Translations under genes and position numbers: made by a program
Assembly: GCA_963699165.1 (NCBI GenBank)
Contig: OY969413.1
Span: 141,984 to 205,983 of the forward strand
Reading direction: 5' to 3'
From: Candidatus Kaiserbacteria bacterium
GTDB lineage: Bacteria; Patescibacteriota; Minisyncoccia; Phycocordibacterales; Phycocordibacteraceae
Length of the DNA stretch: 64,000 bases
The notes under the pieces: generated by a model
Databases searched by the model: none
What the model was told of the DNA's origin: nothing
The model's input: only the letters and a program-made list of their open reading frames with translations
Part shown: in pieces, positions 8,352 to 55,603 of the stretch
How positions within the stretch are numbered: the stretch's first letter is position 1
Layout: the number at the start of each line of letters is the position of its first letter

Positions 8352-8924
8352 ATGTCAAATCTACTAGGAGCCCTAATCGGCTTTTTGCTTTTGTCGGGGG
8401 CGATGGCGCAATCGGCGACCCCCCAGGCAATAGCTCCGGTTCAACCGAGTTACCCCGTAACTCTGACGGCCTATAACGCCGTACCGGCGCAGACCAAAAG
8501 CGACCCCTCGACAACCGCTTCCGGCGCATACTCGAATCCCGAGATTGTCGCCGCCCGCTCCCGTGACCTTGCGGATGAACTGCCGTTCGGCACGATTATT
8601 GAAATCGACGCTCCCGCAGATCCGGATTCGGACGGCAAATGCGGTTATGATACCGTCGCGCCAATCATCGGGTATCGAGTCATCGCCGATACGATGAATG
8701 ACCGGTACACCAACCACATCGATGTTTTATTTAATACCAAGGCGAACTACATCATGAACGACGGAAGCGTGAAGAATGCAAGCAATGTGCTTGGCGTGTG
8801 TAGTGGCGTAACGGCCCGCGTTGTCGGATATATCGATATGAAAAATAACCCGCTTCCAAAGACACAGTCGGAACTTGCCGCAATCGTCGAGGGGCGCGCA
8901 TCTGCACCGCTTGCGGATAAATAA
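8352..8924 (+). CDS. Secreted 3D-domain (MltA/RlpA-like) cell-wall protein
   Basis: Signal peptide MSNLLGALIGFLLLSGAMAQS; LTAYNAVPAQTKSDPSTTASGAYSNPEIVAARS..FGTIIEID matches the 3D domain (conserved D residues). Confidence 0.6.
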   Translation: MSNLLGALIGFLLLSGAMAQSATPQAIAPVQPSYPVTLTAYNAVPAQTKSDPSTTASGAYSNPEIVAARSRDLADELPFGTIIEIDAPADPDSDGKCGYDTVAPIIGYRVIADTMNDRYTNHIDVLFNTKANYIMNDGSVKNASNVLGVCSGVTARVVGYIDMKNNPLPKTQSELAAIVEGRASAPLADK

Positions 8925-8944
8925 TAAAAATCGGTGCGCAAAAA

Positions 8945-8979
8945 AGCGCGGTCCGCCTTAGGCGGGCCGCGCATTTTTG
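8945..8979 (+). terminator. Rho-independent terminator after 3D-domain gene
   Basis: GCGCGGTCCGCCttagGCGGGCCGCGC followed by TTTTT. Confidence 0.5.
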
Positions 8980-8994
8980 CGCTATGCTTTCAAG

Positions 8995-9648
8995 ATGCAG
9001 CGTTTAACGAGAGCGGAGTCCGGTTTGACCGCGGCGGAGTACGAAGTGCTGTCGCGGCTTTCAACGCCGCAAAAAATCCAGGACTTTCTCGATGCCATCC
9101 CGATGAATTGGGAAAAAAAGGGCGACACGCATATGTCGCCGCGTGCCGTTCTTCGAGCGAACAAGGCGCACTGCATCGAAGGTGCAATGCTCGCGGCGGT
9201 GGCGCTCTGGATTAACGGCGAGCCGCCTTTGCTTATGGATTTGTCGGCGCGGCTTGGAAAAGGAGATGTCGATCATGTTATTGCGCTCTACAAGCGCGGC
9301 TGATTTTACGGTGCTATCAGCAAAACCAATCACGCAAGCATTCGATTCCGCGACCCGGTGTACCGCACGCCGCGCGAACTGGCGCTTTCGTATTTTCACG
9401 AATGGTTTATGAACGAGACGGCCGAAAAAACGCTTGAATGCTATTCGAAACCGCTCGATATGCGGCGGCTCGGCTTCGGCTGGATTACCGCCGAAGAAGA
9501 TCTATGGAATGTGGATGATGCGTTGAATTCGCTCACTCATTACAATCTGGTGCCGAAAGGGAATTGGCGTCATGTTCGAAAAGCCGACCCGATGGAACTC
9601 AAAGCCGGCCGCCTCGTTGAGTGGCCGGAGTCCGACCCGCGCACCTAA
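8995..9648 (+). pseudogene. Conserved-looking hypothetical gene interrupted by a single in-frame TGA (9301-9303); two ORF halves in the same frame
   Basis: ORFs 8977..9303 and 9358..9648 are both in frame 1; read-through gives ..VDHVIALYKRG*FYGAISKTNHASIRFRDPVYRTPRELALSYFHEW.. The first ATG (8977) lies inside the upstream terminator, so start taken at MQRL (8995). Confidence 0.5.
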
Positions 9649-9723
9649 CGGTCTGCGAGGGTCTGACCTTCTCAAAGGTCGAATTTGATAAGAGCTCGCC
9701 GAGTATGCTATAAATACTTCATC

Positions 9724-10128
9724 ATGAGTTCGGGAAAATCCACATACCCCGCCCGATTGCGGGTTGGGAGGTCGAGCGCCGGACTCGGTCTGTATGCAAT
9801 GCGGCCGTTTAAAAAAGGCGAACGCATAATCGAATACTTCGGGCGGGAAATATCGAAGAAAGAAGAATACACGAGCCGCAGCAAATATCTCTTCGAGGTC
9901 AGCTCGCGAAAGACGATTGACGGCACGACGCGCAAGAACACGGCGCGATATATCAATCATTCCTGCCGGCCGAATTGCGAGCCGAATATCGTCCGCGGAC
10001 GCATTTTCATCGACGCGATTCGCGGCATCAAAGCCGGGGAAGAATTGACGTACGACTACGGGAAAGATTATTTTGACGAGCACATCAAGCCGCACGGCTG
10101 CCGATGCGCGAAGTGCAGGCCGAAATAG
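9724..10128 (+). CDS. SET-domain protein-lysine methyltransferase-like protein
   Basis: GLGLYAMRPFKKGERIIEYFGREISKKE ... ARYINHSCRPNCEP ... GEELTYDYG ... HGCRCAKCR (NHSC, ELTYDY and post-SET Cys cluster). Promoter-like TTGATA N17 TATAAA upstream. Confidence 0.75.
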   Translation: MSSGKSTYPARLRVGRSSAGLGLYAMRPFKKGERIIEYFGREISKKEEYTSRSKYLFEVSSRKTIDGTTRKNTARYINHSCRPNCEPNIVRGRIFIDAIRGIKAGEELTYDYGKDYFDEHIKPHGCRCAKCRPK

Positions 10129-10507: not shown

Positions 10508-11587
10508 TGTACGCGTCCAGTACTTTTGGCAGTCCCCGACGGTTAATGTACACACAATATACCGCAAGGGGGACACCATGCCGAGCGACTGGTGCGGGCG
10601 TTTGGTGTTGTACCAGATCAGCCAGTCGACAAGCTTCAGATTGAAGGAATGAATATCGTCCCGCAGCAGGCCCCGATTCAGCATGATGAAGTCCTCGGAG
10701 ACGGTGCGATTGAATCGTTCGACGTGGGCATTCATCTTGGGAGTGCGGGGGCGGGTGTGAAAGTGCGTGAGCCCGAGTTCGGCACAGGCATCCTCGAAGT
10801 GTTTGGCGAACTCGCTCCCGTTGTCGGTCTGCAACTCGTCGATATCGAAGGGGCAAACCTCGATGACTCGGCGAAGGAAGTCGTCCGCGCTTCTCGACGA
10901 GTGGTTCGTATACGCGCCCGCAAAGGCGAACTTCCGCTCCACGTCCACTGCCGTGAGGACGTACCGCTTCACGCCGTCGATGAAGCGGACGACGGTATCG
11001 AGCTCCATGCCGCGCTTGCCGGTGCGGCGAAGCTTGGTACGGCGTTTCTGCGGTGTTTCCGTGTGATTGCCCGTACGTGCGTGGAACGAGAGCCGGCTCT
11101 GCTGCGGGAGCAGACCGCGGTTCTTCAAATCCAGAATGACCCGCCCAACGTATGACTCCGACACGGAGTACCCTTCTTCGCGCAGGAGAACGGCAAGCTT
11201 TGCTTTCCCAAGCCGGGGATGCGCCTGTCGTTCGCGGATGATGAAATCCTCGACCTCGGGCAGAACAGTCCTCCTTCGACGCGCCTTCGGCGCAGTGCTC
11301 TTCGGGTCAAGTGCATCAATGCGGCCCTCGTGGGCTTTGAGTTCCTCCTTCCAGCGATACAAGGTGCGCTCCGAGGTGCCAAAGGCGTCGTATGTGGCCT
11401 CCGTCCCGTGCATGTCCCAGAATCCCAATATCTTCACCCGTCTGTCGACTTCCTTTGGTTTCCGCATATGCCGCAATCGTATCGTCCTTTCCCACATGCT
11501 CAACCAGCCCTTCGTACCCCTGAAATTGCTTCTGATGCGCATATATCCTCGGTTATGAGGACTGCCAAATGTATCTGAACTTATGCA
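10508..11587 (-). mobile_element. IS481-family insertion sequence, multi-copy type, copy 1 (1080 bp; ends TGTACGCG...TTATGCA; TSD TGAAG)
   Basis: Identical to copies at 14328, 28564 and 54500. Imperfect terminal IRs share TTTGGCAGTCC. 5-bp direct repeat TGAAG at 10503-10507 and 11588-11592. Sits about 130 bp upstream of cspA. Confidence 0.9.
10509..11542 (-). CDS. IS481-family transposase (HTH + DDE integrase core)
   Basis: 344 aa; MRIRSNFRG ... LDTVVRFIDGVKRYVLTAVDVERKF ... QTDNGSEF ... HFHTRPRTPKMNAHVERFNRTV ... YNTKRPHQSLG. ORF tails after CQKYWTRT differ between copies because they run into flanking DNA. Confidence 0.9.
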
Positions 11588-13687: not shown

Positions 13688-14318
13688 ATTTTTTAGTATA
13701 CAACGGCCTGCAAACAAACGCTCCCGCGCCGCCCTGGCATATTTTTCACCATCGGTATAAGATGCGCCATTCGTTGGCCGACGCTCTCAAAGCCGGCTAC
13801 CAAGTATACGGTCTAACCGACGAGGGTTACCTCGTCCGCACGCGAACGGACCGCGGATGGGCACTGGCGCTCGCCGTCCTGCGACCCAAGGGTGTGTACG
13901 CCTAGGCCGCCCGCCCCTCATCACTCATTTCTGTAGACCTCCCTAACCGGAGGTCTCATCCTGTAAGGCATACGTTTTCGCCTTTATTTTTTATACTGAA
14001 ACTTTTAGCAAAAAAATAAACCGCCTGTTGAGGCGGTGGGGCATGAGTGGTTATCGTTCTAGGCAGGGGTATAATGATTGTTCGATTCTTTGCACGAATC
14101 TCCTTCGTCGCGCGACAGAGGGTCGAGAGTCCGATGTGCTGCCACCAGGTGGCCGAAGGGACTTTTTCTATTTGGATTGAGAGCGACCTGTCTGCCGCAT
14201 CCCGGGCACTGTGCGGTTTTTACCGCTTCGCTAACCTGCTCTGGTGTAGCATTCACTGTTTTTCCTCCGAAATGGTTTGAGAACTCTGATTCCAAATTAC
14301 ACAATGCCGTAGCGGCAG

Positions 14319-15362
14319 TCAAGTTTTTGTACGCGTCCAGTACTTTTGGCAGTCCCCGACGGTTAATGTACACACAATATACCGCAAGGGGGACACCATG
14401 CCGAGCGACTGGTGCGGGCGTTTGGTGTTGTACCAGATCAGCCAGTCGACAAGCTTCAGATTGAAGGAATGAATATCGTCCCGCAGCAGGCCCCGATTCA
14501 GCATGATGAAGTCCTCGGACACGGTGCGATTGAATCGTTCGACGTGGGCATTCATCTTGGGAGTGCGGGGGCGGGTGTGAAAGTGCGTGAGCCCGAGTTC
14601 GGCACAGGCATCCTCGAAGTGTTTGGCGAACTCGCTCCCGTTGTCGGTCTGCAACTCGTCGATATCGAAGGGGCAAACCTCGATGACTCGGCGAAGGAAG
14701 TCGTCCGCGCTTCTCGACGAGTGGTTCGTATACGCGCCCGCAAAGGCGAACTTCCGCTCCACGTCCACTGCCGTGAGGACGTACCGCTTCACGCCGTCGA
14801 TGAAGCGGACGACGGTATCGAGCTCCATGCCGCGCTTGCCGGTGCGGCGAAGCTTGGTACGGCGTTTCTGCGGTGTTTCCGTGTGATTGCCCGTACGTGC
14901 GTGGAACGAGAGCCGGCTCTGCTGCGGGAGCAGACCGCGGTTCTTCAAATCCAGAATGACCCGCCCAACGTATGACTCCGACACGGAGTACCCTTCTTCG
15001 CGCAGGAGAACGGCAAGCTTTGCTTTCCCAAGCCGGGGATGCGCCTGTCGTTCGCGGATGATGAAATCCTCGACCTCGGGCAGAACAGTCCTCCTTCGAC
15101 GCGCCTTCGGCGCAGTGCTCTTCGGGTCAAGTGCATCAATGCGGCCCTCGTGGGCTTTGAGTTCCTCCTTCCAGCGATACAAGGTGCGCTCCGAGGTGCC
15201 AAAGGCGTCGTATGTGGCCTCCGTCCCGTGCATGTCCCAGAATCCCAATATCTTCACCCGTCTGTCGACTTCCTTTGGTTTCCGCATATGCCGCAATCGT
15301 ATCGTCCTTTCCCACATGCTCAACCAGCCCTTCGTACCCCTGAAATTGCTTCTGATGCGCAT
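14319..15362 (-). CDS. IS481-family transposase (copy 2)
   Basis: Same protein as copy 1; the ORF-track N-terminal extension to 15419 lies outside the element and is not part of it. Confidence 0.85.
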   Translation of the reverse strand: MRIRSNFRGTKGWLSMWERTIRLRHMRKPKEVDRRVKILGFWDMHGTEATYDAFGTSERTLYRWKEELKAHEGRIDALDPKSTAPKARRRRTVLPEVEDFIIRERQAHPRLGKAKLAVLLREEGYSVSESYVGRVILDLKNRGLLPQQSRLSFHARTGNHTETPQKRRTKLRRTGKRGMELDTVVRFIDGVKRYVLTAVDVERKFAFAGAYTNHSSRSADDFLRRVIEVCPFDIDELQTDNGSEFAKHFEDACAELGLTHFHTRPRTPKMNAHVERFNRTVSEDFIMLNRGLLRDDIHSFNLKLVDWLIWYNTKRPHQSLGMVSPLRYIVCTLTVGDCQKYWTRTKT

Positions 15363-15407
15363 ATATCCTCGGTTATGAGGACTGCCAAATGTATCTGAAC
15401 TTATGCA
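14328..15407 (-). mobile_element. IS481-family insertion sequence copy 2 (TSD GTTTT)
   Basis: 1080 bp identical element; GTTTT at 14323-14327 and 15408-15412. Left flank shares 15 nt (CGGCAGTCAAGTTTT) with the flank of the IS fragment at 51752. Confidence 0.9.
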
Positions 15408-26538: not shown

Positions 26539-27599
26539 GGCGACTAGTCTTTTGAATTCGAACGTTTGATACATTGAGCGAATGAAAAAACCTCCGGCGG
26601 TGCGCACTTCACAAGGTCCGAACGAGACGAAATACAGATACTGTTAGCGAAGGGATACTCTTTGCAAGATGTCGGAGATGCACTCGACCGACCGAAGAGT
26701 GTCATATGGTACGAGACGCAAAAGAAGAGGAAGGGACGGCCGTATGATGCTGCATATGCGCATCACATTTCATACGTACGAAGGAAATACAGCCGAGCGG
26801 TCGGCAAGATGATTGCTCTCGACCCGAAGCTCCGGAAGTTCATCGAGGCGCATCTCTTCGACGATCAGTCGCCCGAAAACATCTCACTTCGATTGAAGCG
26901 GATCGAGAAGGATATCGGATATGCTTCATCCTCGGCTATACGCCGATATATCAAGAGCCCGTATGGCAGACGGATCGAGTCGCATCGAGCAAAGTTATTC
27001 AAGAAGAGGCGACGCTCTCGGCCATCGAAACCACACATTGCCGACAAGCGCCTGATCGACAAACGACCGAGCAAAATCAACAAGCGATGGGGATTGGGTC
27101 ACATGGAGGGCGACTTCATCGTGTCGGGCAAGAGCGGTCAAGGCATCATTCTTGGTCTGCGGGATCGCAGGGTGCGCAAAAACCTGCTGGAGCGGATCCT
27201 GCCAGTGTCAGTGCGAAACGTGGAGCGAGCGCTTCGCAGAATGAAAAAGCGGTATCCCGAGATGCAGACCATCACATTCGACAACGATATTCTCTTTCTC
27301 GAACACAAACGGCTAGAGAAGGTGCTTGGGGTGAAGATATATTTCTGTCATGTGCATGCGCCATGGGAGAAGCCATCAATCGAGAATCTGAACAAGGACT
27401 TGCGGCGGTACATCCCGAAAAGCTCGGATATTTCAAAGTATTCAAAAAGATTTGTGCAGAAACTCGAAGCAAAGATGAATCGCCGCTTCATGGATGTGCT
27501 CGGTTCACTCACGCCAGATGAGGCGTATGCTGCGGAAAAGAAACAACGCGCTCAGAGGAGCGCAAAAAACCGTCGTTCGAATTGAGGGGTTTGGGTGCC
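26539..27599 (+). mobile_element. IS30-family insertion sequence copy A (1061 bp, TSD CGC)
   Basis: Identical to copies at 35958..37018 and 46880..47940 (both minus). Ends GGCGACTAGTCTTTTGAATTCGAACG / CGTTCGAATTGAGGGGTTTGGGTGCC form imperfect IRs. CGC at 26536-38 and 27600-02. Confidence 0.85.
26662..27585 (+). CDS. IS30-family transposase
   Basis: 307 aa; N-terminal HTH, DDE core HMEGDFIVSGKS ... ITFDNDILF ... CHVHAPWEKPSIENLNKDLRRY. Confidence 0.9.
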   Translation: MQDVGDALDRPKSVIWYETQKKRKGRPYDAAYAHHISYVRRKYSRAVGKMIALDPKLRKFIEAHLFDDQSPENISLRLKRIEKDIGYASSSAIRRYIKSPYGRRIESHRAKLFKKRRRSRPSKPHIADKRLIDKRPSKINKRWGLGHMEGDFIVSGKSGQGIILGLRDRRVRKNLLERILPVSVRNVERALRRMKKRYPEMQTITFDNDILFLEHKRLEKVLGVKIYFCHVHAPWEKPSIENLNKDLRRYIPKSSDISKYSKRFVQKLEAKMNRRFMDVLGSLTPDEAYAAEKKQRAQRSAKNRRSN

Positions 27600-28554: not shown

Positions 28555-29598
28555 TCAGCGACATGTACGCGTCCAGTACTTTTGGCAGTCCCCGACGGTT
28601 AATGTACACACAATATACCGCAAGGGGGACACCATGCCGAGCGACTGGTGCGGGCGTTTGGTGTTGTACCAGATCAGCCAGTCGACAAGCTTCAGATTGA
28701 AGGAATGAATATCGTCCCGCAGCAGGCCCCGATTCAGCATGATGAAGTCCTCGGAGACGGTGCGATTGAATCGTTCGACGTGGGCATTCATCTTGGGAGT
28801 GCGGGGGCGGGTGTGAAAGTGCGTGAGCCCGAGTTCGGCACAGGCATCCTCGAAGTGTTTGGCGAACTCGCTCCCGTTGTCGGTCTGCAACTCGTCGATA
28901 TCGAAGGGGCAAACCTCGATGACTCGGCGAAGGAAGTCGTCCGCGCTTCTCGACGAGTGGTTCGTATACGCGCCCGCAAAGGCGAACTTCCGCTCCACGT
29001 CCACTGCCGTGAGGACGTACCGCTTCACGCCGTCGATGAAGCGGACGACGGTATCGAGCTCCATGCCGCGCTTGCCGGTGCGGCGAAGCTTGGTACGGCG
29101 TTTCTGCGGTGTTTCCGTGTGATTGCCCGTACGTGCGTGGAACGAGAGCCGGCTCTGCTGCGGGAGCAGACCGCGGTTCTTCAAATCCAGAATGACCCGC
29201 CCAACGTATGACTCCGACACGGAGTACCCTTCTTCGCGCAGGAGAACGGCAAGCTTTGCTTTCCCAAGCCGGGGATGCGCCTGTCGTTCGCGGATGATGA
29301 AATCCTCGACCTCGGGCAGAACAGTCCTCCTTCGACGCGCCTTCGGCGCAGTGCTCTTCGGGTCAAGTGCATCAATGCGGCCCTCGTGGGCTTTGAGTTC
29401 CTCCTTCCAGCGATACAAGGTGCGCTCCGAGGTGCCAAAGGCGTCGTATGCGGCCTCCGTCCCGTGCATGTCCCAGAATCCCAATATCTTCACCCGTCTG
29501 TCGACTTCCTTTGGTTTCCGCATATGCCGCAATCGTATCGTCCTTTCCCACATGCTCAACCAGCCCTTCGTACCCCTGAAATTGCTTCTGATGTGCAT
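28555..29598 (-). CDS. IS481-family transposase (copy 3)
   Basis: Same protein; one M-to-H substitution near N-terminus (MHIRSNFRG). Confidence 0.85.
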   Translation of the reverse strand: MHIRSNFRGTKGWLSMWERTIRLRHMRKPKEVDRRVKILGFWDMHGTEAAYDAFGTSERTLYRWKEELKAHEGRIDALDPKSTAPKARRRRTVLPEVEDFIIRERQAHPRLGKAKLAVLLREEGYSVSESYVGRVILDLKNRGLLPQQSRLSFHARTGNHTETPQKRRTKLRRTGKRGMELDTVVRFIDGVKRYVLTAVDVERKFAFAGAYTNHSSRSADDFLRRVIEVCPFDIDELQTDNGSEFAKHFEDACAELGLTHFHTRPRTPKMNAHVERFNRTVSEDFIMLNRGLLRDDIHSFNLKLVDWLIWYNTKRPHQSLGMVSPLRYIVCTLTVGDCQKYWTRTCR

Positions 29599-29643
29599 AT
29601 ATCCTCGGTTATGAGGACTGCCAAATGTATCTGAACTTATGCA
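28564..29643 (-). mobile_element. IS481-family insertion sequence copy 3 (TSD CGACA)
   Basis: CGACA at 28559-28563 and 29644-29648; inserted about 50 bp upstream of tsaC start. Confidence 0.9.
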
Positions 29644-31797: not shown

Positions 31798-32427
31798 TTA
31801 GGAAACCGGCTTGCCGTCCGGTCGCCACTCAGCCATTGCTTCGTGGATTTTCTCTTCGATAATATTTGCGTACGAACGCCACGGCTCGCCGTGTTCCCGC
31901 AGTGCGGGAATGAGGATTGGCAGATGGAACGCCATCGTTTCCTCAAGCTGATCTGACCTTTTTTGTTCAGTGCAGCCGTAAAGCGTGCGAAGGTTGTGCA
32001 AACGGTCGCACAACTTCGCGAGAATCGCTATCGGTCCCGCGGCCACGATTCTGCCAAGATATTTCTCGGTAGTTTCTTTCCCTCGGGGCAATTTCGTAAG
32101 CGCGACCACATACAAAGCGATTTCTTTGCCGAAATTAAGCGCAATTCTGTATGGCGACATCAAATCGGCATTTTCCTCGATGTCATGCAACAAGATCGTG
32201 ATTGCCACATCGGGATCACGACCATTCAGCTCGTAAGTATAGATCCACGTGGCCGACTTCGGATGGTCGAAATACCTGCTTCCGTCATCTCGCGTTTGTT
32301 GCGCATGGCCATGTTTCGAAACGATGTAAGCATATCTGATGCGCTCGAAGTCGGCCGGGTCGAGCAGTGCAAACGGCGCAAGGAAGAGTTCACGTCCGGG
32401 AGGACGTGGTCGAGGATTATCTCTCAC
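31798..32427 (-). CDS. HD-domain (p)ppGpp-hydrolase-like protein (small alarmone hydrolase, RelA/SpoT HD family)
   Basis: SKHGHAQQTRDDGSRYFDHP ... LLHDIEEN ... KLCDRLHNLRTL mirror the SpoT hydrolase H..H(x)nHD..ED and downstream motifs; no synthetase domain. Confidence 0.65.
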   Translation of the reverse strand: MRDNPRPRPPGRELFLAPFALLDPADFERIRYAYIVSKHGHAQQTRDDGSRYFDHPKSATWIYTYELNGRDPDVAITILLHDIEENADLMSPYRIALNFGKEIALYVVALTKLPRGKETTEKYLGRIVAAGPIAILAKLCDRLHNLRTLYGCTEQKRSDQLEETMAFHLPILIPALREHGEPWRSYANIIEEKIHEAMAEWRPDGKPVS

Positions 32428-32566
32428 GATTCGTCTCCTTTCGTGAAAAGGTCAAATGCTGCTTCAAATAACGCTCCGGCGGTAATAAATCATTAAATCG
32501 AAGAACAGTCAATCGTCGTCTCCGTCTCCGCACCAAAGAATCGGCAAATTCGTATATACTCCCAAC

Positions 32567-35957: not shown

Positions 35958-37018
35958 GGCACCCAAACCCCTCAATTCGAACGACGGTTTTTTGCGCTCC
36001 TCTGAGCGCGTTGTTTCTTTTCCGCAGCATACGCCTCATCTGGCGTGAGTGAACCGAGCACATCCATGAAGCGGCGATTCATCTTTGCTTCGAGTTTCTG
36101 CACAAATCTTTTTGAATACTTTGAAATATCCGAGCTTTTCGGGATGTACCGCCGCAAGTCCTTGTTCAGATTCTCGATTGATGGCTTCTCCCATGGCGCA
36201 TGCACATGACAGAAATATATCTTCACCCCAAGCACCTTCTCTAGCCGTTTGTGTTCGAGAAAGAGAATATCGTTGTCGAATGTGATGGTCTGCATCTCGG
36301 GATACCGCTTTTTCATTCTGCGAAGCGCTCGCTCCACGTTTCGCACTGACACTGGCAGGATCCGCTCCAGCAGGTTTTTGCGCACCCTGCGATCCCGCAG
36401 ACCAAGAATGATGCCTTGACCGCTCTTGCCCGACACGATGAAGTCGCCCTCCATGTGACCCAATCCCCATCGCTTGTTGATTTTGCTCGGTCGTTTGTCG
36501 ATCAGGCGCTTGTCGGCAATGTGTGGTTTCGATGGCCGAGAGCGTCGCCTCTTCTTGAATACCTTTGCTCGATGCGACTCGATCCGTCTGCCATACGGGC
36601 TCTTGATATATCGGCGTATAGCCGAGGATGAAGCATATCCGATATCCTTCTCGATCCGCTTCAATCGAAGTGAGATGTTTTCGGGCGACTGATCGTCGAA
36701 GAGATGCGCCTCGATGAACTTCCGGAGCTTCGGGTCGAGAGCAATCATCTTGCCGACCGCTCGGCTGTATTTCCTTCGTACGTATGAAATGTGATGCGCA
36801 TATGCAGCATCATACGGCCGTCCCTTCCTCTTCTTTTGCGTCTCGTACCATATGACACTCTTCGGTCGGTCGAGTGCATCTCCGACATCTTGCAAAGAGT
36901 ATCCCTTCGCTAACAGTATCTGTATTTCGTCTCGTTCGGACCTTGTGAAGTGCGCACCGCCGGAGGTTTTTTCATTCGCTCAATGTATCAAACGTTCGAA
37001 TTCAAAAGACCAGTCGCC
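35958..37018 (-). mobile_element. IS30-family insertion sequence copy B (TSD AAA on plus strand)
   Basis: AAA at 35955-57 and 37019-21; inverted relative to copy A. Confidence 0.85.
35972..36895 (-). CDS. IS30-family transposase (copy B)
   Basis: Same 307-aa protein with one K/V substitution (RAKVFKK). Confidence 0.9.
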   Translation of the reverse strand: MQDVGDALDRPKSVIWYETQKKRKGRPYDAAYAHHISYVRRKYSRAVGKMIALDPKLRKFIEAHLFDDQSPENISLRLKRIEKDIGYASSSAIRRYIKSPYGRRIESHRAKVFKKRRRSRPSKPHIADKRLIDKRPSKINKRWGLGHMEGDFIVSGKSGQGIILGLRDRRVRKNLLERILPVSVRNVERALRRMKKRYPEMQTITFDNDILFLEHKRLEKVLGVKIYFCHVHAPWEKPSIENLNKDLRRYIPKSSDISKYSKRFVQKLEAKMNRRFMDVLGSLTPDEAYAAEKKQRAQRSAKNRRSN

Positions 37019-43332: not shown

Positions 43333-43420
43333 TTTTCGGAGCGCGCGACGTTGCTCGACTGTACTGAGTGTAAAGCAATCCGCCGTGAGGCGGATTTCTT
43401 TTTTTTGGTTTCTTTCGACT

Positions 43421-46879: not shown

Positions 46880-47940
46880 GGCACCCAAACCCCTCAATTC
46901 GAACGACGGTTTTTTGCGCTCCTCTGAGCGCGTTGTTTCTTTTCCGCAGCATACGCCTCATCTGGCGTGAGTGAACCGAGCACATCCATGAAGCGGCGAT
47001 TCATCTTTGCTTCGAGTTTCTGCACAAATCTTTTTGAATACTTTGAAATATCCGAGCTTTTCGGGATGTACCGCCGCAAGTCCTTGTTCAGATTCTCGAT
47101 TGATGGCTTCTCCCATGGCGCATGCACATGACAGAAATATATCTTCACCCCAAGCACCTTCTCTAGCCGTTTGTGTTCGAGAAAGAGAATATCGTTGTCG
47201 AATGTGATGGTCTGCATCTCGGGATACCGCTTTTTCATTCTGCGAAGCGCTCGCTCCACGTTTCGCACTGACACTGGCAGGATCCGCTCCAGCAGGTTTT
47301 TGCGCACCCTGCGATCCCGCAGACCAAGAATGATGCCTTGACCGCTCTTGCCCGACACGATGAAGTCGCCCTCCATGTGACCCAATCCCCATCGCTTGTT
47401 GATTTTGCTCGGTCGTTTGTCGATCAGGCGCTTGTCGGCAATGTGTGGTTTCGATGGCCGAGAGCGTCGCCTCTTCTTGAATAACTTTGCTCGATGCGAC
47501 TCGATCCGTCTGCCATACGGGCTCTTGATATATCGGCGTATAGCCGAGGATGAAGCATATCCGATATCCTTCTCGATCCGCTTCAATCGAAGTGAGATGT
47601 TTTCGGGCGACTGATCGTCGAAGAGATGCGCCTCGATGAACTTCCGGAGCTTCGGGTCGAGAGCAATCATCTTGCCGACCGCTCGGCTGTATTTCCTTCG
47701 TACGTATGAAATGTGATGCGCATATGCAGCATCATACGGCCGTCCCTTCCTCTTCTTTTGCGTCTCGTACCATATGACACTCTTCGGTCGGTCGAGTGCA
47801 TCTCCGACATCTTGCAAAGAGTATCCCTTCGCTAACAGTATCTGTATTTCGTCTCGTTCGGACCTTGTGAAGTGCGCACCGCCGGAGGTTTTTTCATTCG
47901 CTCAATGTATCAAACGTTCGAATTCAAAAGACCAGTCGCC
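46880..47940 (-). mobile_element. IS30-family insertion sequence copy C (imperfect TSD)
   Basis: Identical 1061 bp; flanks give TTG/GTG (2 of 3) in element orientation; about 28 bp upstream of the KGG gene start. Confidence 0.85.
46894..47817 (-). CDS. IS30-family transposase (copy C)
   Basis: Identical to copy A protein. Confidence 0.9.
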   Translation of the reverse strand: MQDVGDALDRPKSVIWYETQKKRKGRPYDAAYAHHISYVRRKYSRAVGKMIALDPKLRKFIEAHLFDDQSPENISLRLKRIEKDIGYASSSAIRRYIKSPYGRRIESHRAKLFKKRRRSRPSKPHIADKRLIDKRPSKINKRWGLGHMEGDFIVSGKSGQGIILGLRDRRVRKNLLERILPVSVRNVERALRRMKKRYPEMQTITFDNDILFLEHKRLEKVLGVKIYFCHVHAPWEKPSIENLNKDLRRYIPKSSDISKYSKRFVQKLEAKMNRRFMDVLGSLTPDEAYAAEKKQRAQRSAKNRRSN

Positions 47941-48290: not shown

Positions 48291-48350
48291 AACCAAAAAC
48301 AAAGAAATCCGCCTTGCGGCGGACTTCATTTTTTGTTTTGTCATGATAGG

Positions 48351-51442: not shown

Positions 51443-51751
51443 TGAAACCTCCTTTGCGAAAGAGCAACTTACAGGCGGAGCATTTCATAATTCATGGCAT
51501 CGGTCAATCTTGCCGTAATGGTTCAATCTCGGAGTCGTATTGGGGAAAAATTAAGTCGATTGAATATAAAAGACCGAGGCGCTATGTCCTCGGACTTGAG
51601 CCAGTTGCTGCACAGCAGTTTTACTTCCGTCCGGTGGAAAAGATAAAAACACCGGCGTCATCAGTTCACCGCCCAAGCAGCAACCCCTGTCATCTTTGTA
51701 CTTCGGTGCTCGCAAAGATACTACAGAAACTCAAAACGGCAGTCAAGTTTT

Positions 51752-51895
51752 TGTACGCGTCCAGTACTTTTGGCAGTCCCCGACGGTTAATGTACACACA
51801 ATATACCGCAAGGGGGACACCATGCCGAGCGACTGGTGCGGGCGTTTGGTGTTGTACCAGATCAGCCAGTCGACAAGCTTCAGATTGAAGGAATG
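51752..51895 (-). mobile_element. 144-bp fragment (transposase-stop end) of the multi-copy IS481 element, truncated by the IS3 element
   Basis: Identical to the first 144 bp of the full copies; diverges exactly where the IS3 inverted repeat begins. Confidence 0.85.
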
Positions 51896-51923
51896 TACCG
51901 ACCCCTATTCTTCAGACCACTTC

Positions 51924-52736
51924 CTAGACGAGTGAAGATAGTGTACGGGTGATGTGCGATTTCGCAAACTCTCTCGGTGCCATCTTGAGTGTTGAGTGTA
52001 TACGCACGGTGTTGTACCGGTGAATTGTCTGATAGATTTCAGCAACAAGTTCACCAAGCGTATCGAAGCGATTGGGATCGCCCAGATCAGTTTTGAATTT
52101 TCCATAGAACGATTCTTGGTACCCGTTCTCCCACGGACAGCCCTTTTTTGAGCGAGAGATGCTGATGCCGAAATTGATGAGCATCTCTCGGAAGGATGCG
52201 GCATTGTATTCCACTCCGTTGTCGCTGTGAAAGATGGTGGGACGAGGATGGTTGAGAAGTGCCGCGCACAATGCCTGCGTCACAAGTACGGTTCCACCTC
52301 GCGTACCAATGGCGAGCCCAACGACACTTCGAGTGTATACGTCCATGGTGGTTGCCACACGAATGTCTTTCCCTTTGAAATACACATGAGTGAAATCAGC
52401 GACCCATGCTTGATGCGGATAGGCGGGTACAATCCGCATCAGGAGATTTGGATACTCCACGGCTTGTTTCCTTGATTTCCTCCACCGTCTTCCTCTTCTT
52501 CGATATGCTTTGATACCAAAGAGTCGCATGACTCTTTGAACCTTCTTTTTGTTCTCCTTGAGATACAGGGCAACTCTCCGGTATCCATACGAAGGAAACT
52601 CTCGAAGGACTTCTTCAATACGGCATTTGAGTGCCCAGTCTTTGTCAGGCTTCTTCTTTTGATACCAGAAGGTGGAACGAGCTATACCAAGAGTACGCGC
52701 TGTTGTGCGCGTACCAATCGGAGATTCTTTGCTCAC
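51924..52736 (-). CDS. IS3-family transposase OrfB (DDE integrase core)
   Basis: WVADFTHVY ... HSDNGVEY ... GCPWENGYQESFYGKFKTD. Confidence 0.85.
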   Translation of the reverse strand: MSKESPIGTRTTARTLGIARSTFWYQKKKPDKDWALKCRIEEVLREFPSYGYRRVALYLKENKKKVQRVMRLFGIKAYRRRGRRWRKSRKQAVEYPNLLMRIVPAYPHQAWVADFTHVYFKGKDIRVATTMDVYTRSVVGLAIGTRGGTVLVTQALCAALLNHPRPTIFHSDNGVEYNAASFREMLINFGISISRSKKGCPWENGYQESFYGKFKTDLGDPNRFDTLGELVAEIYQTIHRYNTVRIHSTLKMAPREFAKSHITRTLSSLV

Positions 52737-52990
52737 TTCTTTTTTTGGGTTTCAGACAGCTTGAGCGTCATGAGTCCAACAAGACGAAGGAGTTCGTCAT
52801 TCTCTTTTCGAAGTCTCGCAATCTCAAGAACAGATGCGGTACCGTCTTGCACTTTCGCACCAAGCCAGCCATAGATGGTGGTCTCGTGGATACCATGCTC
52901 TTTGGCCGCTTGGGCGACAGTGACACCATCGTTCTTGATTCGATTAATGATTTGTTCCTTCACCTCAGGAGCGATGCGGTATTGCTTCAT
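52733..52990 (-). CDS. IS3-family transposase OrfA (HTH)
   Basis: 85 aa; KEQIINRIKNDGVTVAQAAKEHGIHETTIYGW HTH, leucine-zipper tail; overlaps orfB by 4 bp in the -1 frame. Confidence 0.8.
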   Translation of the reverse strand: MKQYRIAPEVKEQIINRIKNDGVTVAQAAKEHGIHETTIYGWLGAKVQDGTASVLEIARLRKENDELLRLVGLMTLKLSETQKKK

Positions 52991-53037
52991 ATGACGTCAT
53001 TCTAGCGGTTAATCCCGTCTAGAACATGGTCTGAAAT

Positions 53038-54387
53038 TTGGGGGTCAGGTCAGATGCAGGAGAGATAACCTATATGATACGCACGGGTGTCATTGAAGAC
53101 CTCAAGCTCGCCGCCTATCATTTTGAAAACACGCCCGAGGGTATTTGGATGCTTCAAATGGCACTCTCACAATCTCAATACGAAAGCGCAAAGAAGGGGC
53201 GCGATGTGAAGCGTGGACTTATGCAGAAAGCAAAAATGGGTGTTTATCCTGCGCCCGCGTCCATCGGCTATATGAATGACAAGCACGCCGAAAAGGGATA
53301 CAAGACCATCCACGCGGACCCCGAACGCTTTGACATCGTGCGGAAGATGTTTGACCTGATGCTCGCAGGTGCGCATACGCCACCGCGTATTTTGGAGATT
53401 GCGACGAAAGAGTGGGAGCTACGGATGCCGAAAGGAAAACCTTTGAGCCGAAGCAATGTCTATCTGCTTTTTACACGCGAGTTCTACTACGGCGAGTTTG
53501 AGTACCCTGTAGGAAGCGGCAACTGGCACAAAGGCGTCCATAAGCCGATGATTACGCGCGAGGAGTTTGACCGCATACAAGTATTGCTCGGCAGGAGAAG
53601 CAACCCACGCCAGAAACGGCACGAGATTATGTATCGCGGTCCGATAAAGTGTGGCGAGTGCGGCTGTATGATTACTGCCGAGGAAAAAACGAAGTATCAG
53701 AAAAACGGCAATAAGCACGATTACACCTACTATCATTGCACCAAGCGTAGGGACCCGAACTGCAAGCAACCCCCGATTGAAGAAGCCGAGCTTGAAAAGC
53801 AGATTGCCAAAGAGGTTGGCTCTATAGAGATACCCGAGGACTTCACAAAATGGGCTCTGGCACGCCTTCGGGAGATGAATACGCAGGAGGTATCTGACCG
53901 AGACCGCATCTACGGCTCGCAGAGGCGCGAATACGAGGGATGTGTGCGTAAGATAGATAACCTCATTGATATGCGTGCCAATAACGAACTCACAGAGGAT
54001 GAGTTCAAGGGCAGAAAGCAAACACTCCTTGCTGAAAAGGAGCGACTTGCCTCACTGCTCAAGGATACTGACAAGCGCGTAGAGAACTGGCTTGAGATTG
54101 CCGAGCGCGGTTTCAACTTTGCAGAGAAAGCGGCGGCTATTTTTGCCGAAGCGAAGGAGAATGACGACATTGAGACGCGCAAAGAGATTTTTGCCTCATT
54201 AGGTTCGGACCTCATCTTGAAAGACAAAATACTAAGCATTGACTGGGATAATCTGCTGTTCCCGATACAAACAATGGCAAAAGAAGTCCGCGCCGTTCAC
54301 GCAGAGTTAGAACCTGTAGAAAACTCAGTAAATACAAAGGATTATGGCGAACTCTACTCTCAAAATCCTATCTTGCTCCGGCGGTAG
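53038..54387 (+). pseudogene. N-terminally truncated large serine recombinase (Recombinase domain + zinc-ribbon + coiled coil; resolvase catalytic domain missing)
   Basis: GVYPAPASIGYMNDKHAEKGYKTIHADPERFDIVRKMFDLMLAGAHTPPRILEIATKEWELRMPKGKPLSRSNVYLLFTREFYYGEFEY is the Recombinase domain (PF07508 type). CGECGCMITAEEKTKYQKNGNKHDYTYYHCTKRR is the zinc ribbon. The ORF begins inside the IS3 right end, so the Ser catalytic domain is absent. The 3' end overlaps the tRNA-Asn 3' end. Confidence 0.65.
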
Positions 54388-54447
54388 GATTCGAACCTAC
54401 AACCAACGCCTTAACAGGGCGCTGCTCTACCATTGAGCTACACCGGA
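54376..54447 (-). tRNA. tRNA-Asn (anticodon GUU)
   Basis: Reverse complement reads TCCGGTG ta GCTC AATGGTA GAGC a GCGCC CTGTTAA GGCGT tggtt GTAGG TTCGAAT CCTAC CGCCGGA g: 7-bp acceptor, D-arm, anticodon loop CUGUUAA, T-arm with TTCGAAT. Confidence 0.8.
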
Positions 54448-54481
54448 ATATATAGCGAACTTATGCATTCTAACCGAAAAA

Positions 54482-55534
54482 TCATAGTCCGCAATGGTAT
54501 GTACGCGTCCAGTACTTTTGGCAGTCCCCGACGGTTAATGTACACACAATATACCGCAAGGGGGACACCATGCCGAGCGACTGGTGCGGGCGTTTGGTGT
54601 TGTACCAGATCAGCCAGTCGACAAGCTTCAGATTGAAGGAATGAATATCGTCCCGCAGCAGGCCCCGATTCAGCATGATGAAGTCCTCGGAGACGGTGCG
54701 ATTGAATCGTTCGACGTGGGCATTCATCTTGGGAGTGCGGGGGCGGGTGTGAAAGTGCGTGAGCCCGAGTTCGGCACAGGCATCCTCGAAGTGTTTGGCG
54801 AACTCGCTCCCGTTGTCGGTCTGCAACTCGTCGATATCGAAGGGGCAAACCTCGATGACTCGGCGAAGGAAGTCGTCCGCGCTTCTCGACGAGTGGTTCG
54901 TATACGCGCCCGCAAAGGCGAACTTCCGCTCCACGTCCACTGCCGTGAGGACGTACCGCTTCACGCCGTCGATGAAGCGTACGACGGTATCGAGCTCCAT
55001 GCCGCGCTTGCCGGTGCGGCGAAGCTTGGTACGGCGTTTCTGCGGTGTTTCCGTGTGATTGCCCGTACGTGCGTGGAACGAGAGCCGGCTCTGCTGCGGG
55101 AGCAGACCGCGGTTCTTCAAATCCAGAATGACCCGCCCAACGTATGACTCCGACACGGAGTACCCTTCTTCGCGCAGGAGAACGGCAAGCTTTGCTTTCC
55201 CAAGCCGGGGATGCGCCTGTCGTTCGCGGATGATGAAATCCTCGACCTCGGGCAGAACAGTCCTCCTTCGACGCGCCTTCGGCGCAGTGCTCTTCGGGTC
55301 AAGTGCATCAATGCGGCCCTCGTGGGCTTTGAGTTCCTCCTTCCAGCGATACAAGGTGCGCTCCGAGGTGCCAAAGGCGTCGTATGTGGCCTCCGTCCCG
55401 TGCATGTCCCAGAATCCCAATATCTTCACCCGTCTGTCGACTTCCTTTGGTTTCCGCATATGCCGCAATCGTATCGTCCTTTCCCACATGCTCAACCAGC
55501 CCTTCGTACCCCTGAAATTGCTTCTGATGCGCAT
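54482..55534 (-). CDS. IS481-family transposase (copy 4)
   Basis: Same protein, one D-to-Y substitution (VDEAYDGIEL on opposite-frame shadow corresponds to a single nt change). Confidence 0.85.
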   Translation of the reverse strand: MRIRSNFRGTKGWLSMWERTIRLRHMRKPKEVDRRVKILGFWDMHGTEATYDAFGTSERTLYRWKEELKAHEGRIDALDPKSTAPKARRRRTVLPEVEDFIIRERQAHPRLGKAKLAVLLREEGYSVSESYVGRVILDLKNRGLLPQQSRLSFHARTGNHTETPQKRRTKLRRTGKRGMELDTVVRFIDGVKRYVLTAVDVERKFAFAGAYTNHSSRSADDFLRRVIEVCPFDIDELQTDNGSEFAKHFEDACAELGLTHFHTRPRTPKMNAHVERFNRTVSEDFIMLNRGLLRDDIHSFNLKLVDWLIWYNTKRPHQSLGMVSPLRYIVCTLTVGDCQKYWTRTYHCGL

Positions 55535-55579
55535 ATATCCTCGGTTATGAGGACTGCCAAATGTATCTGAACTTATGCA
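54500..55579 (-). mobile_element. IS481-family insertion sequence copy 4 (TSD TGGTA)
   Basis: TGGTA at 54495-54499 and 55580-55584; inserted 52 bp from the tRNA. Confidence 0.9.
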
Positions 55580-55603
55580 TGGTAGAATATGCGCGGCAGA
55601 CAT

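Follow-up and report, generated by a model that had tools for sequence, protein, structure and literature searches.

What chain of events leaves a transposable element lodged between a scrap of another element and a recombinase gene that has lost its catalytic domain, at the very end of a tRNA gene? This question is raised by a locus that starts at position 51752 of a 64,000-nucleotide (nt) stretch of contig OY969413.1 (Candidatus Kaiserbacteria bacterium, assembly GCA_963699165.1); the whole stretch is referred to here as the window. From left to right, the locus consists of a 144-bp fragment of an IS481-like insertion sequence (IS), an IS3-family element, the 3' remnant of a large serine recombinase gene, a convergent tRNA-Asn(GTT) gene, and a complete IS481-like copy. 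Very probably, this is the fossil attachment (att) junction of a genomic island that had integrated at the 3' end of the tRNA gene, with a deletion between two IS3 copies as the likeliest route to its present form. The junction is assigned to an island because intact homologues of the recombinase end inside a convergent tRNA gene and have cargo genes upstream.

A large serine recombinase without its catalytic domain

On the plus strand, translation from position 53053 onward gives ~444 residues, the C-terminal part of a large serine recombinase of ~535 amino acids (aa). This remnant (53053..54387) corresponds to residues ~92-535 of the intact protein, and its frame is open throughout. It contains the Pfam domains Recombinase (PF07508, 29.7 bits with a cutoff of 21.1) and Zn_ribbon_recom (PF13408, 35.6 bits with a cutoff of 25.3), and it keeps the C-terminal helical region; residues ~300-355 gave only sub-threshold Pfam matches to DUF4164 and SHOCT. 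The resolvase domain (PF00239), which carries the Ser nucleophile, has no Pfam match in the window's open reading frame (ORF). The longest version of this ORF starts with a TTG at 53038, inside the IS3 end, as the initial annotation had proposed along with the lack of a resolvase domain. Gene callers place the start at an ATG at 53074 (P0001, 437 aa), and an AGGAG motif is found 11 nt upstream of this ATG.

The break in the recombinase is sharp. In tblastn searches with four intact homologues, the alignment runs from their residue 91/92 and starts exactly at 53053, at the transition from ...NEK to DAGEITYMIRTG..., and BLASTP alignments to intact homologues likewise begin at residue 91/92. Thus, the catalytic region, KYFxYVRKS..., is missing from the window recombinase. 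The intact homologues with a Ser catalytic domain for which a search had been suggested do exist: they are 530-550 aa in length, have PF00239, and carry the conserved YVRKS motif upstream of the break point. More than 2000 homologues of the recombinase are present in the database. Judged by its sequence, the window copy is a truncated derivative of the large serine recombinase family, not a functional member of it. A tblastn search for the missing 91 N-terminal residues found no recombinase N-terminus anywhere in the 64-kb window. In a protein database search with these residues, the closest short match was P0122; it was rejected, since its break is at residue 83 and its sample is an unrelated one.

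At its other end, the recombinase runs into the tRNA gene. Its stop codon (54385-54387) lies inside the convergent tRNA-Asn(GTT) gene (54375..54447, minus strand), and the overlap of 13 nt constitutes the last 13 nt of both genes. Both this overlap and the identity of the tRNA, given as tRNA-Asn(GUU) in the initial annotation, are upheld; the gene is intact and is recognized by ARAGORN and by Rfam (RF00005, 73.8 bits). Between 50.9 and 55.7 kb, Rfam finds only this tRNA, and no other RNA gene or att-like structure.

Recombinases and tRNA genes in related islands

A recombinase that abuts the 3' end of a tRNA gene had been taken as the mark of an integrated element, and a survey of GTDB representative genomes, which comprised 34 patescibacterial loci and five loci from other phyla (39 in all), agrees with this idea. 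At 29 loci, the end of the recombinase ORF overlaps a convergent tRNA gene (for Asn, Gln, Asp, Lys or Trp) by 13-84 nt. At two more (L005/L017 and L029) it overlaps a tRNA-Asn that is split by a group I intron and is therefore not seen by ARAGORN. Thus, the recombinase ends inside a convergent tRNA in 31 of the 34 patescibacterial loci; no tRNA adjoins it at the five loci from other phyla. The homologues that end inside a tRNA range from 84 to 37% identity. An overlap of 13 nt is found with tRNA-Asn in L008, L012 and L013, and with tRNA-Gln in L010. The introns (RF00028) lie in the anticodon loop of the tRNA-Asn genes at 11596-11923 in L005 (84.7 bits) and at 11634-11932 in L029 (58 bits); such tRNA group I introns are described in a published report (PMC13011429). 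Consequently, the "half tRNA" of L005, which had been a candidate for an unintegrated attP, was ruled out as such, and likewise that of L029.

In the intact relatives, the recombinase is the last gene of an accessory block, and the cargo lies upstream of it. The cargo includes a methyltransferase and a ResIII helicase, or copper/metal-resistance genes, as well as HTH_17 and DUF5659 proteins and small ORFs. Depending on the island, the product of the gene directly upstream of the recombinase is a conserved ~395-aa protein or else resembles a tyrosine recombinase. The ~395-aa partner (L005 8805-9995, L008 8660-9847, L010 8761-9996) is 63-67% identical between islands and has no Pfam or PHROG match; in contrast to it, a different gene (8729-9853) occupies the position directly upstream of the serine recombinase in L012. 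An RNA motif, LOOT (RF03000, ~78 bits), is also present within two of the islands, a few kb upstream of the recombinase (L029 5961-6076, L031 2440-2561).

The initial annotation had allowed that the remaining cargo might lie on either side of the junction. This does not hold: the islands of the intact relatives are all upstream of the recombinase and the 5' side of the tRNA is chromosome, so that only the low-coordinate side qualifies. However, no homologue of an island-module protein is found in the 64-kb window (53 kb upstream and 10 kb downstream of the junction), and base composition gives no island signal. In the window, the junction alone survives of the island.

The position of the boundary between island and chromosome is provided by one pair of loci, L012 and L013, both at tRNA-Asn. 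One island, with 99.9% identity over 7.4 kb, is present here in two host chromosomes that have diverged. The match extends across the recombinase and 14 nt into the tRNA (GCTCCGGCGGTAGG), and the sequences part at nucleotide 15. This places the boundary in the last 14 nt of the tRNA, the tail of which is supplied by the island. By comparison with this pair, the island would have supplied at most the last 14 nt of the window tRNA-Asn. In many other homologues (L017-L055), the part of the reading frame inside the tRNA measures 40-84 nt, with 61 nt as the value for the majority of tRNA-Gln loci; if the boundary of ≤14 nt holds there as well, the last 10-25 residues of these recombinases would come from the antisense strand of the host tRNA and would change on excision. 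Together, the geometry at the 31 loci and the L012/L013 boundary suggest that this family catalyzes recombination between attP and attB at the 3' end of tRNA genes.

With a boundary so close to the tRNA end, it is understandable that none of the loci shows a long direct repeat of the tRNA. A second copy of the tRNA-Asn 3' end had been expected as the distal att site. In the window and five homologue loci, only chance-level matches of 8-12 nt were found, and no repeat of the tRNA 3' end longer than 14 nt exists within 10 kb at the homologue loci. Since the expected repeat is ≤14 nt, this test has little power. The single candidate for a distal site in the window is a 12-nt copy of the tRNA-Asn 3' terminus, GCTCCGGCGGTA, at 32473..32484 on the plus strand (blastn-short, E=0.19). 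It has the orientation expected of a displaced att fragment, but it is probably a chance match. An HD-domain gene is located near it, at 31798-32427. As the genes from this site up to the junction are ordinary chromosomal genes with no island-module homologue, it was set aside; a comparison with other strains added nothing, since it yielded contigs of the same strain alone.

The IS3-family element and its mismatched flanks

On its 5' side, the remnant adjoins an IS3-family element of 1159 bp (51894..53052, minus strand). The element has TG...CA ends and imperfect inverted repeats of ~38-40 nt, which in the alignment of the two repeats read TGTACCGACCCC... and ...GGGGGTCAGGTCA. Its ends were set independently of the window, by a 100%-identical copy in L001 (GCA_049279115.1, contig 33), which next to orfA is flanked by other sequence and whose contig stops exactly at the opposite terminus. 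An exact-match scan of GTDB representative genomes with the IS3 end gave 0 matches. The first gene, orfA (52733..52990, minus strand), encodes 85 aa with HTH_Tnp_1 (PF01527, E=2.4e-9), and orfB (51924..52736, minus strand) encodes a DDE/rve transposase of 270 aa (Pfam rve, E=3.3e-17), in which Pfam also finds rve_3 and HTH_21. OrfB scores 214.9 bits with the NCBIfam model "IS3 family transposase" (NF033516, cutoff 160). The two genes overlap, and an A AAA AAG slippery site, AAAAAAAG, is present at 52739-52746 on the minus strand; a -1 frameshift at this site gives access to orfB.

A comparison of the flanks at both ends reveals no target duplication, since GGAA borders the element on one side and GATG on the other. 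This absence is read as a sign of rearrangement after insertion, and not as an argument against membership of the IS3 family. The flanks correspond to position 142/144 of the IS481-like element and to codon 91/92 of the recombinase. Thus, they come from two different insertion sites, and an IS3-associated rearrangement occurred. The picture of an IS3 element with ~40-bp inverted repeats, orfA and orfB, and no target duplication is accurate in each of these points.

The left flank (51752..51895, minus strand) is a terminal fragment of the IS481-like element, from the end that adjoins the C-terminus of the transposase. All of its 144 nt match, with 100% identity, the initial 144 nt of each of the four complete copies in the window, in agreement with the original assignment. 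The last 2 nt of the fragment, TG at 51894-51895, belong to the IS3 end as well. A whole IS481-like copy occupies the 51752 locus in a related strain (L002); therefore, the association with IS3 is derived.

The four complete copies of the IS481-like element are nearly identical, are 1080 bp in length, and lie at 10508-11587, 14328-15407, 28564-29643 and 54500-55579. Alignment of the copies and their flanks assigns one 5-bp target duplication to each (TGAAG, GTTTT, CGACA and TGGTA). The element has the ends TGTACGCG...TTATGCA, and its inverted repeats have TTTGGCAGTCC in common. The best NCBIfam match of its transposase is to the IS481 family (NF033577), at 181.6 bits, and the second is to IS3, at 92.9 bits; because the former falls under the curated cutoff of 224, "IS481-like" is the safe name. 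The copy nearest the junction (54500..55579, minus strand) lies upstream of tRNA-Asn, whose 5' end is 52 nt away. It is bounded by TGGTA at 54495-54499 and 55580-55584, and its flanks are continuous with L006/L007. This copy is a simple insertion, separate from the rearrangement.

Other features of the IS481-like copies were observed as well. An identical sequence of 15 nt (CGGCAGTCAAGTTTT) directly precedes two different copies, at 14313-14327 and at 51737-51751. Within it lies GGCAGTC, the core of the inverted repeat of the element itself; the 15 nt could be a preferred target, a co-mobilized flank, or the remnant of an older end. In L002 (10315-11739), the IS481-like copy at the 51752 locus is followed by 5 nt (ATAGT) and then by a second, tandem copy, with no matching target duplication, and stacked partial copies are present at 1-979. 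These arrangements may be real IS dimers or an artefact of long-read assembly.

How the junction could have formed

A short series of steps would account for the locus. The island would have integrated at the 3' end of tRNA-Asn(GTT) by means of a large serine recombinase encoded at its edge. As in intact islands, the recombinase would have been the last island gene, convergent with the tRNA and with its stop codon in the sequence of the acceptor stem. One IS3 copy would then have inserted into an IS481-like element and another, in the same orientation, into codon 91/92 of the recombinase. Homologous recombination between the two copies would have deleted the remainder of the IS481-like element, the island cargo and the 5' end of the recombinase, leaving a single hybrid IS3 in place of the first ~91 codons, which include that of the catalytic serine. 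The remnant cannot catalyze recombination, and the junction is thereby locked; any loss of the extreme 3' end of the remnant would destroy the tRNA. Of the possible forms of the rearrangement, a deletion is the most probable.

Recombination between two IS3 insertions is the usual way in which such a hybrid arises. In 2001, Cooper and colleagues reportedly described deletions in which two copies of IS150, an IS3-family element, had recombined and no target duplication was left. These IS150-type deletions of rbs in Escherichia coli, by recombination of an old with a new copy, reportedly likewise left a lone IS3-family element without a target duplication, flanks from two sites, and a lost interval. 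In contrast to those deletions, one flank is here an IS481-like IS and the other an integrase gene, and the ancestral state with two copies has not been observed.

A single IS3 copy, already present in either the IS481-like element or the recombinase, could also have deleted the DNA next to it when one of its ends transposed within the same molecule. This would give the same end product, namely one IS without a target duplication that retains one original flank, and sequence alone cannot separate this process from recombination between two copies. However, IS3-family elements transpose by a copy-out/paste-in process via a circular intermediate, and adjacent deletions are not a direct product of it. 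We consider a single-copy mechanism quite unlikely.

Several points weigh against a fossil junction formed by deletion between two IS3 copies. No distal att site has been identified, and the junction between the IS481-like fragment and IS3 has no independent assembly cover. Over its 1.3 kb, the remnant is free of stop codons and frameshifts, and its ratio of nonsynonymous to synonymous substitution rates (dN/dS) relative to its relatives is ~0.08; therefore, either the truncation is recent or the remnant is still constrained. In addition, a reciprocal junction, in which the recombinase N-terminus is joined through IS3 to the rest of the IS481-like element, could lie elsewhere in the ~993-kb source contig. 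A protein database search revealed no N-terminal fragment from this contig, a weak negative given that a piece of 91 codons may not have been called as a gene.

The last of these points bears on whether the DNA was lost or only moved. An inversion or translocation between two IS3 copies would have left the recombinase N-terminus and the cargo elsewhere in the ~1-Mb genome, beside the reciprocal IS3 junction; recombination between copies in direct orientation would produce a deletion, and that between opposed copies an inversion. In favour of this, L001 shows that the population contains at least one further IS3 copy, and the remnant ORF is undecayed. Compared with a related strain, moreover, ISs have heavily rearranged the window, as at the IS30 copy at 46880, whose left flank differs from that in L002. 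However, neither an N-terminal fragment nor an island-module gene exists in the 53 kb upstream or the 10 kb downstream, and the database matches include no N-terminal fragment protein of the 993-kb contig. The L001 copy adjoins a PMT gene, not IS481 sequence, on its orfA side, and so is not the reciprocal junction. We consider an inversion or translocation unlikely, though not far-fetched. Of the original proposal of an IS3-associated deletion, the rearrangement itself is established by the missing target duplication, while deletion is its likeliest but unproven form.

A more radical alternative is that the locus is an assembly chimera, in which IS3 and IS481 repeats falsely joined a glyoxalase locus to the recombinase/tRNA locus. 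The region is dense in repeats, and the junction between the IS481-like fragment and IS3 has no contig of its own: L001 stops exactly at the IS3 end and L003 inside the IS481-like fragment. On the other hand, the junction between the IS3 end and the recombinase is reproduced with 100% identity in unitigs of two independent read sets (L015, SRR27973122; L016, ERR10755936). Therefore, whatever lies beyond IS3, the truncation of the recombinase is real and not an artefact of assembly. Furthermore, a false join at nucleotide 144 of the IS481-like element, exactly at the IS3 terminus, is unlike a repeat collapse. We regard a chimera as extremely improbable.

Is the remnant a pseudogene?

An open and conserved remnant raises the possibility of a retained, catalytically dead DNA-binding protein made up of the Recombinase domain, the zinc ribbon and a putative coiled coil, which might, for example, occupy the tRNA att site and so hinder re-integration. 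The 437-449-codon ORF is intact, with its AGGAG motif upstream of the ATG at 53074, and dN/dS is 0.08 relative to L006, which is another truncated copy. N-terminal truncations that spare the whole C-terminal part also recur, at residue 83 in L006/L007 and at residue 62 in L020. In a specific version of this idea, a dead module that binds the att site or tRNA end, expressed from IS3-end sequence, would keep related islands out of the sole tRNA-Asn locus, which would account for the 440-475 open C-terminal codons in the window, L006/L007 and L020.

Nevertheless, the comparison of the window with L020 points elsewhere. The number of nonsynonymous substitutions per site (dN) is 0.105 for the recombinase, whereas it is 0.41 for fmt and 0.35 for def. 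Since the recombinase is more conserved than these genes, the islands spread horizontally after their hosts had diverged, and so the low dN/dS mostly dates from the time when the gene was a functional integrase. The same conservation relative to the flanking fmt and def genes argues against a single ancient domestication common to the window, L006 and L020, which was rejected. The truncation points and mechanisms vary by lineage, and an excess of long remnants is expected from the ranking of hits. P0084 (440 aa, with the same MIRTG start) is not a biological truncation; it is merely cut by a contig end, its gene beginning at nt 14 of the contig. Finally, no promoter-like site lies between the IS3 end and the ATG, and a consensus scan gave no support for a promoter outward from the IS3 end or between the IS481-like copy and the tRNA. 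Overall, a retained protein of any kind is very unlikely, and we see only a slim chance that it serves as a shield for the tRNA.

The other truncated copies differ from that of the window in how they were broken. In L006/L007, the break at residue 83 is preceded by a different IS3-family orfA and 13 codons of orfB fused to the recombinase, and upstream of these there are remains of a tyrosine integrase, namely its truncated N-terminus, and of a P-type ATPase, namely its end. In L020, the break at residue 62 involves no IS, and the remnant is fused to a fragment of a deacetylase; the downstream order of tRNA-Asn, fmt and def is that of the window. The truncations in the window, L006/L007 and L020 are independent and apparently recent decays. 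That 3' stumps survive has a simple reason: when an island is deleted, the end point may fall at any position in the recombinase but not in the tRNA tail supplied by the island. The fusion in L006 (579-1214; also in L007) has a feature of its own, in that orfA ends at the AAAAAAG site and the 13 orfB codons that follow are in frame with the truncated recombinase; thus, frameshifting would yield a chimera of OrfA and the N-terminally deleted recombinase.

Relation to known systems

The intact homologues share the order of resolvase domain, Recombinase domain, zinc ribbon and, putatively, coiled-coil region with the A118/LI integrase (PDB 4KIS), with CcrA/B/C of SCCmec, and with XisF. There are also weak but specific sequence matches between the recombinase and the A118 integrase C-terminal domain, CcrB and XisF. 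One homologue, P0003, matches the A118 C-terminal domain structure (4KIS) with E=2.6e-6. Unlike A118 integrase, CcrB and XisF, the window copy has no catalytic domain, and the scores for all named subfamilies are far under their cutoffs; the nearest named relatives of the remnant in NCBIfam are CcrB (80 bits, cutoff 900) and XisF (78 bits, cutoff 375). Like the large serine recombinases of phages and islands, the homologues are encoded at the edge of the integrated element. However, characterized serine integrases mostly target protein-coding genes, whereas this family targets tRNA 3' ends and has an ORF that ends inside the tRNA.

In their position, these islands resemble the tRNA islands of the Islander/TIGER class, which have tyrosine integrases. 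There, too, the integrase gene lies beside the 3' end of a tRNA gene, the element restores the 3' portion of the tRNA, the cargo is variable (of restriction/methylation type or for metal resistance), and degenerate islands with an integrase pseudogene are common. The differences are that the recombinase here is a serine and not a tyrosine recombinase, and that the tRNA segment supplied by the island is ≤14 nt, with no long distal repeat. Mageeney et al. (2020; PMC7192596) found tRNA/tmRNA use by serine integrases in only 14 of 297 cases and called such use new to the literature and still requiring experimental proof. Full-text literature searches revealed no paper that links serine recombinases, tRNA genes and the Candidate Phyla Radiation.

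The locus thus adds one more case to each of two well-known phenomena, namely degenerate island junctions linked to a tRNA gene and IS3-type rearrangements that leave no target duplication. In itself it represents routine genome decay, and it shows how IS traffic dismantles and locks an integrated element in a patescibacterial genome of ~1 Mb. The more noteworthy by-product is the targeting of tRNA genes by a whole family of serine integrases; those of the ultra-small Patescibacteria form a large group that is apparently undescribed. If confirmed, they would be serine integrases that naturally target tRNA genes, with a conserved and portable type of attB, and they would help to map the mobile elements of a phylum in which little is known of these.

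Neighbouring genes and IS load

To the right of the junction lie genes for DUF167, HPF, fmt, def and murA. To the left are a 93-aa ORF and genes for glyoxalase, Bax1-I, DUF308 and LEA-like proteins; in L002, these left-side genes are contiguous, across an IS30 copy, with clpP, a pyrophosphatase gene and nusA, and by this arrangement the left-hand neighbours look chromosomal. Three identical IS30-family copies of 1061 bp (168.7 bits, cutoff 80) are present, at 26539-27599, 35958-37018 and 46880-47940. Differences between the window and L002 at IS boundaries, as at the left flank of the copy at 46880, indicate IS-mediated scrambling. With four full IS481-like copies and one fragment, three IS30 copies and one IS3, ISs make up ~15% of the 64 kb, a very high load for a genome of ~1 Mb. 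A pair of 40-nt sequences that are 80% complementary to each other occurs at 43372-43411 and 48291-48330. Each forms a GC-rich hairpin (GGCGGATT... and AATCCGCC...) with runs of T or A alongside, and resembles a bidirectional terminator.

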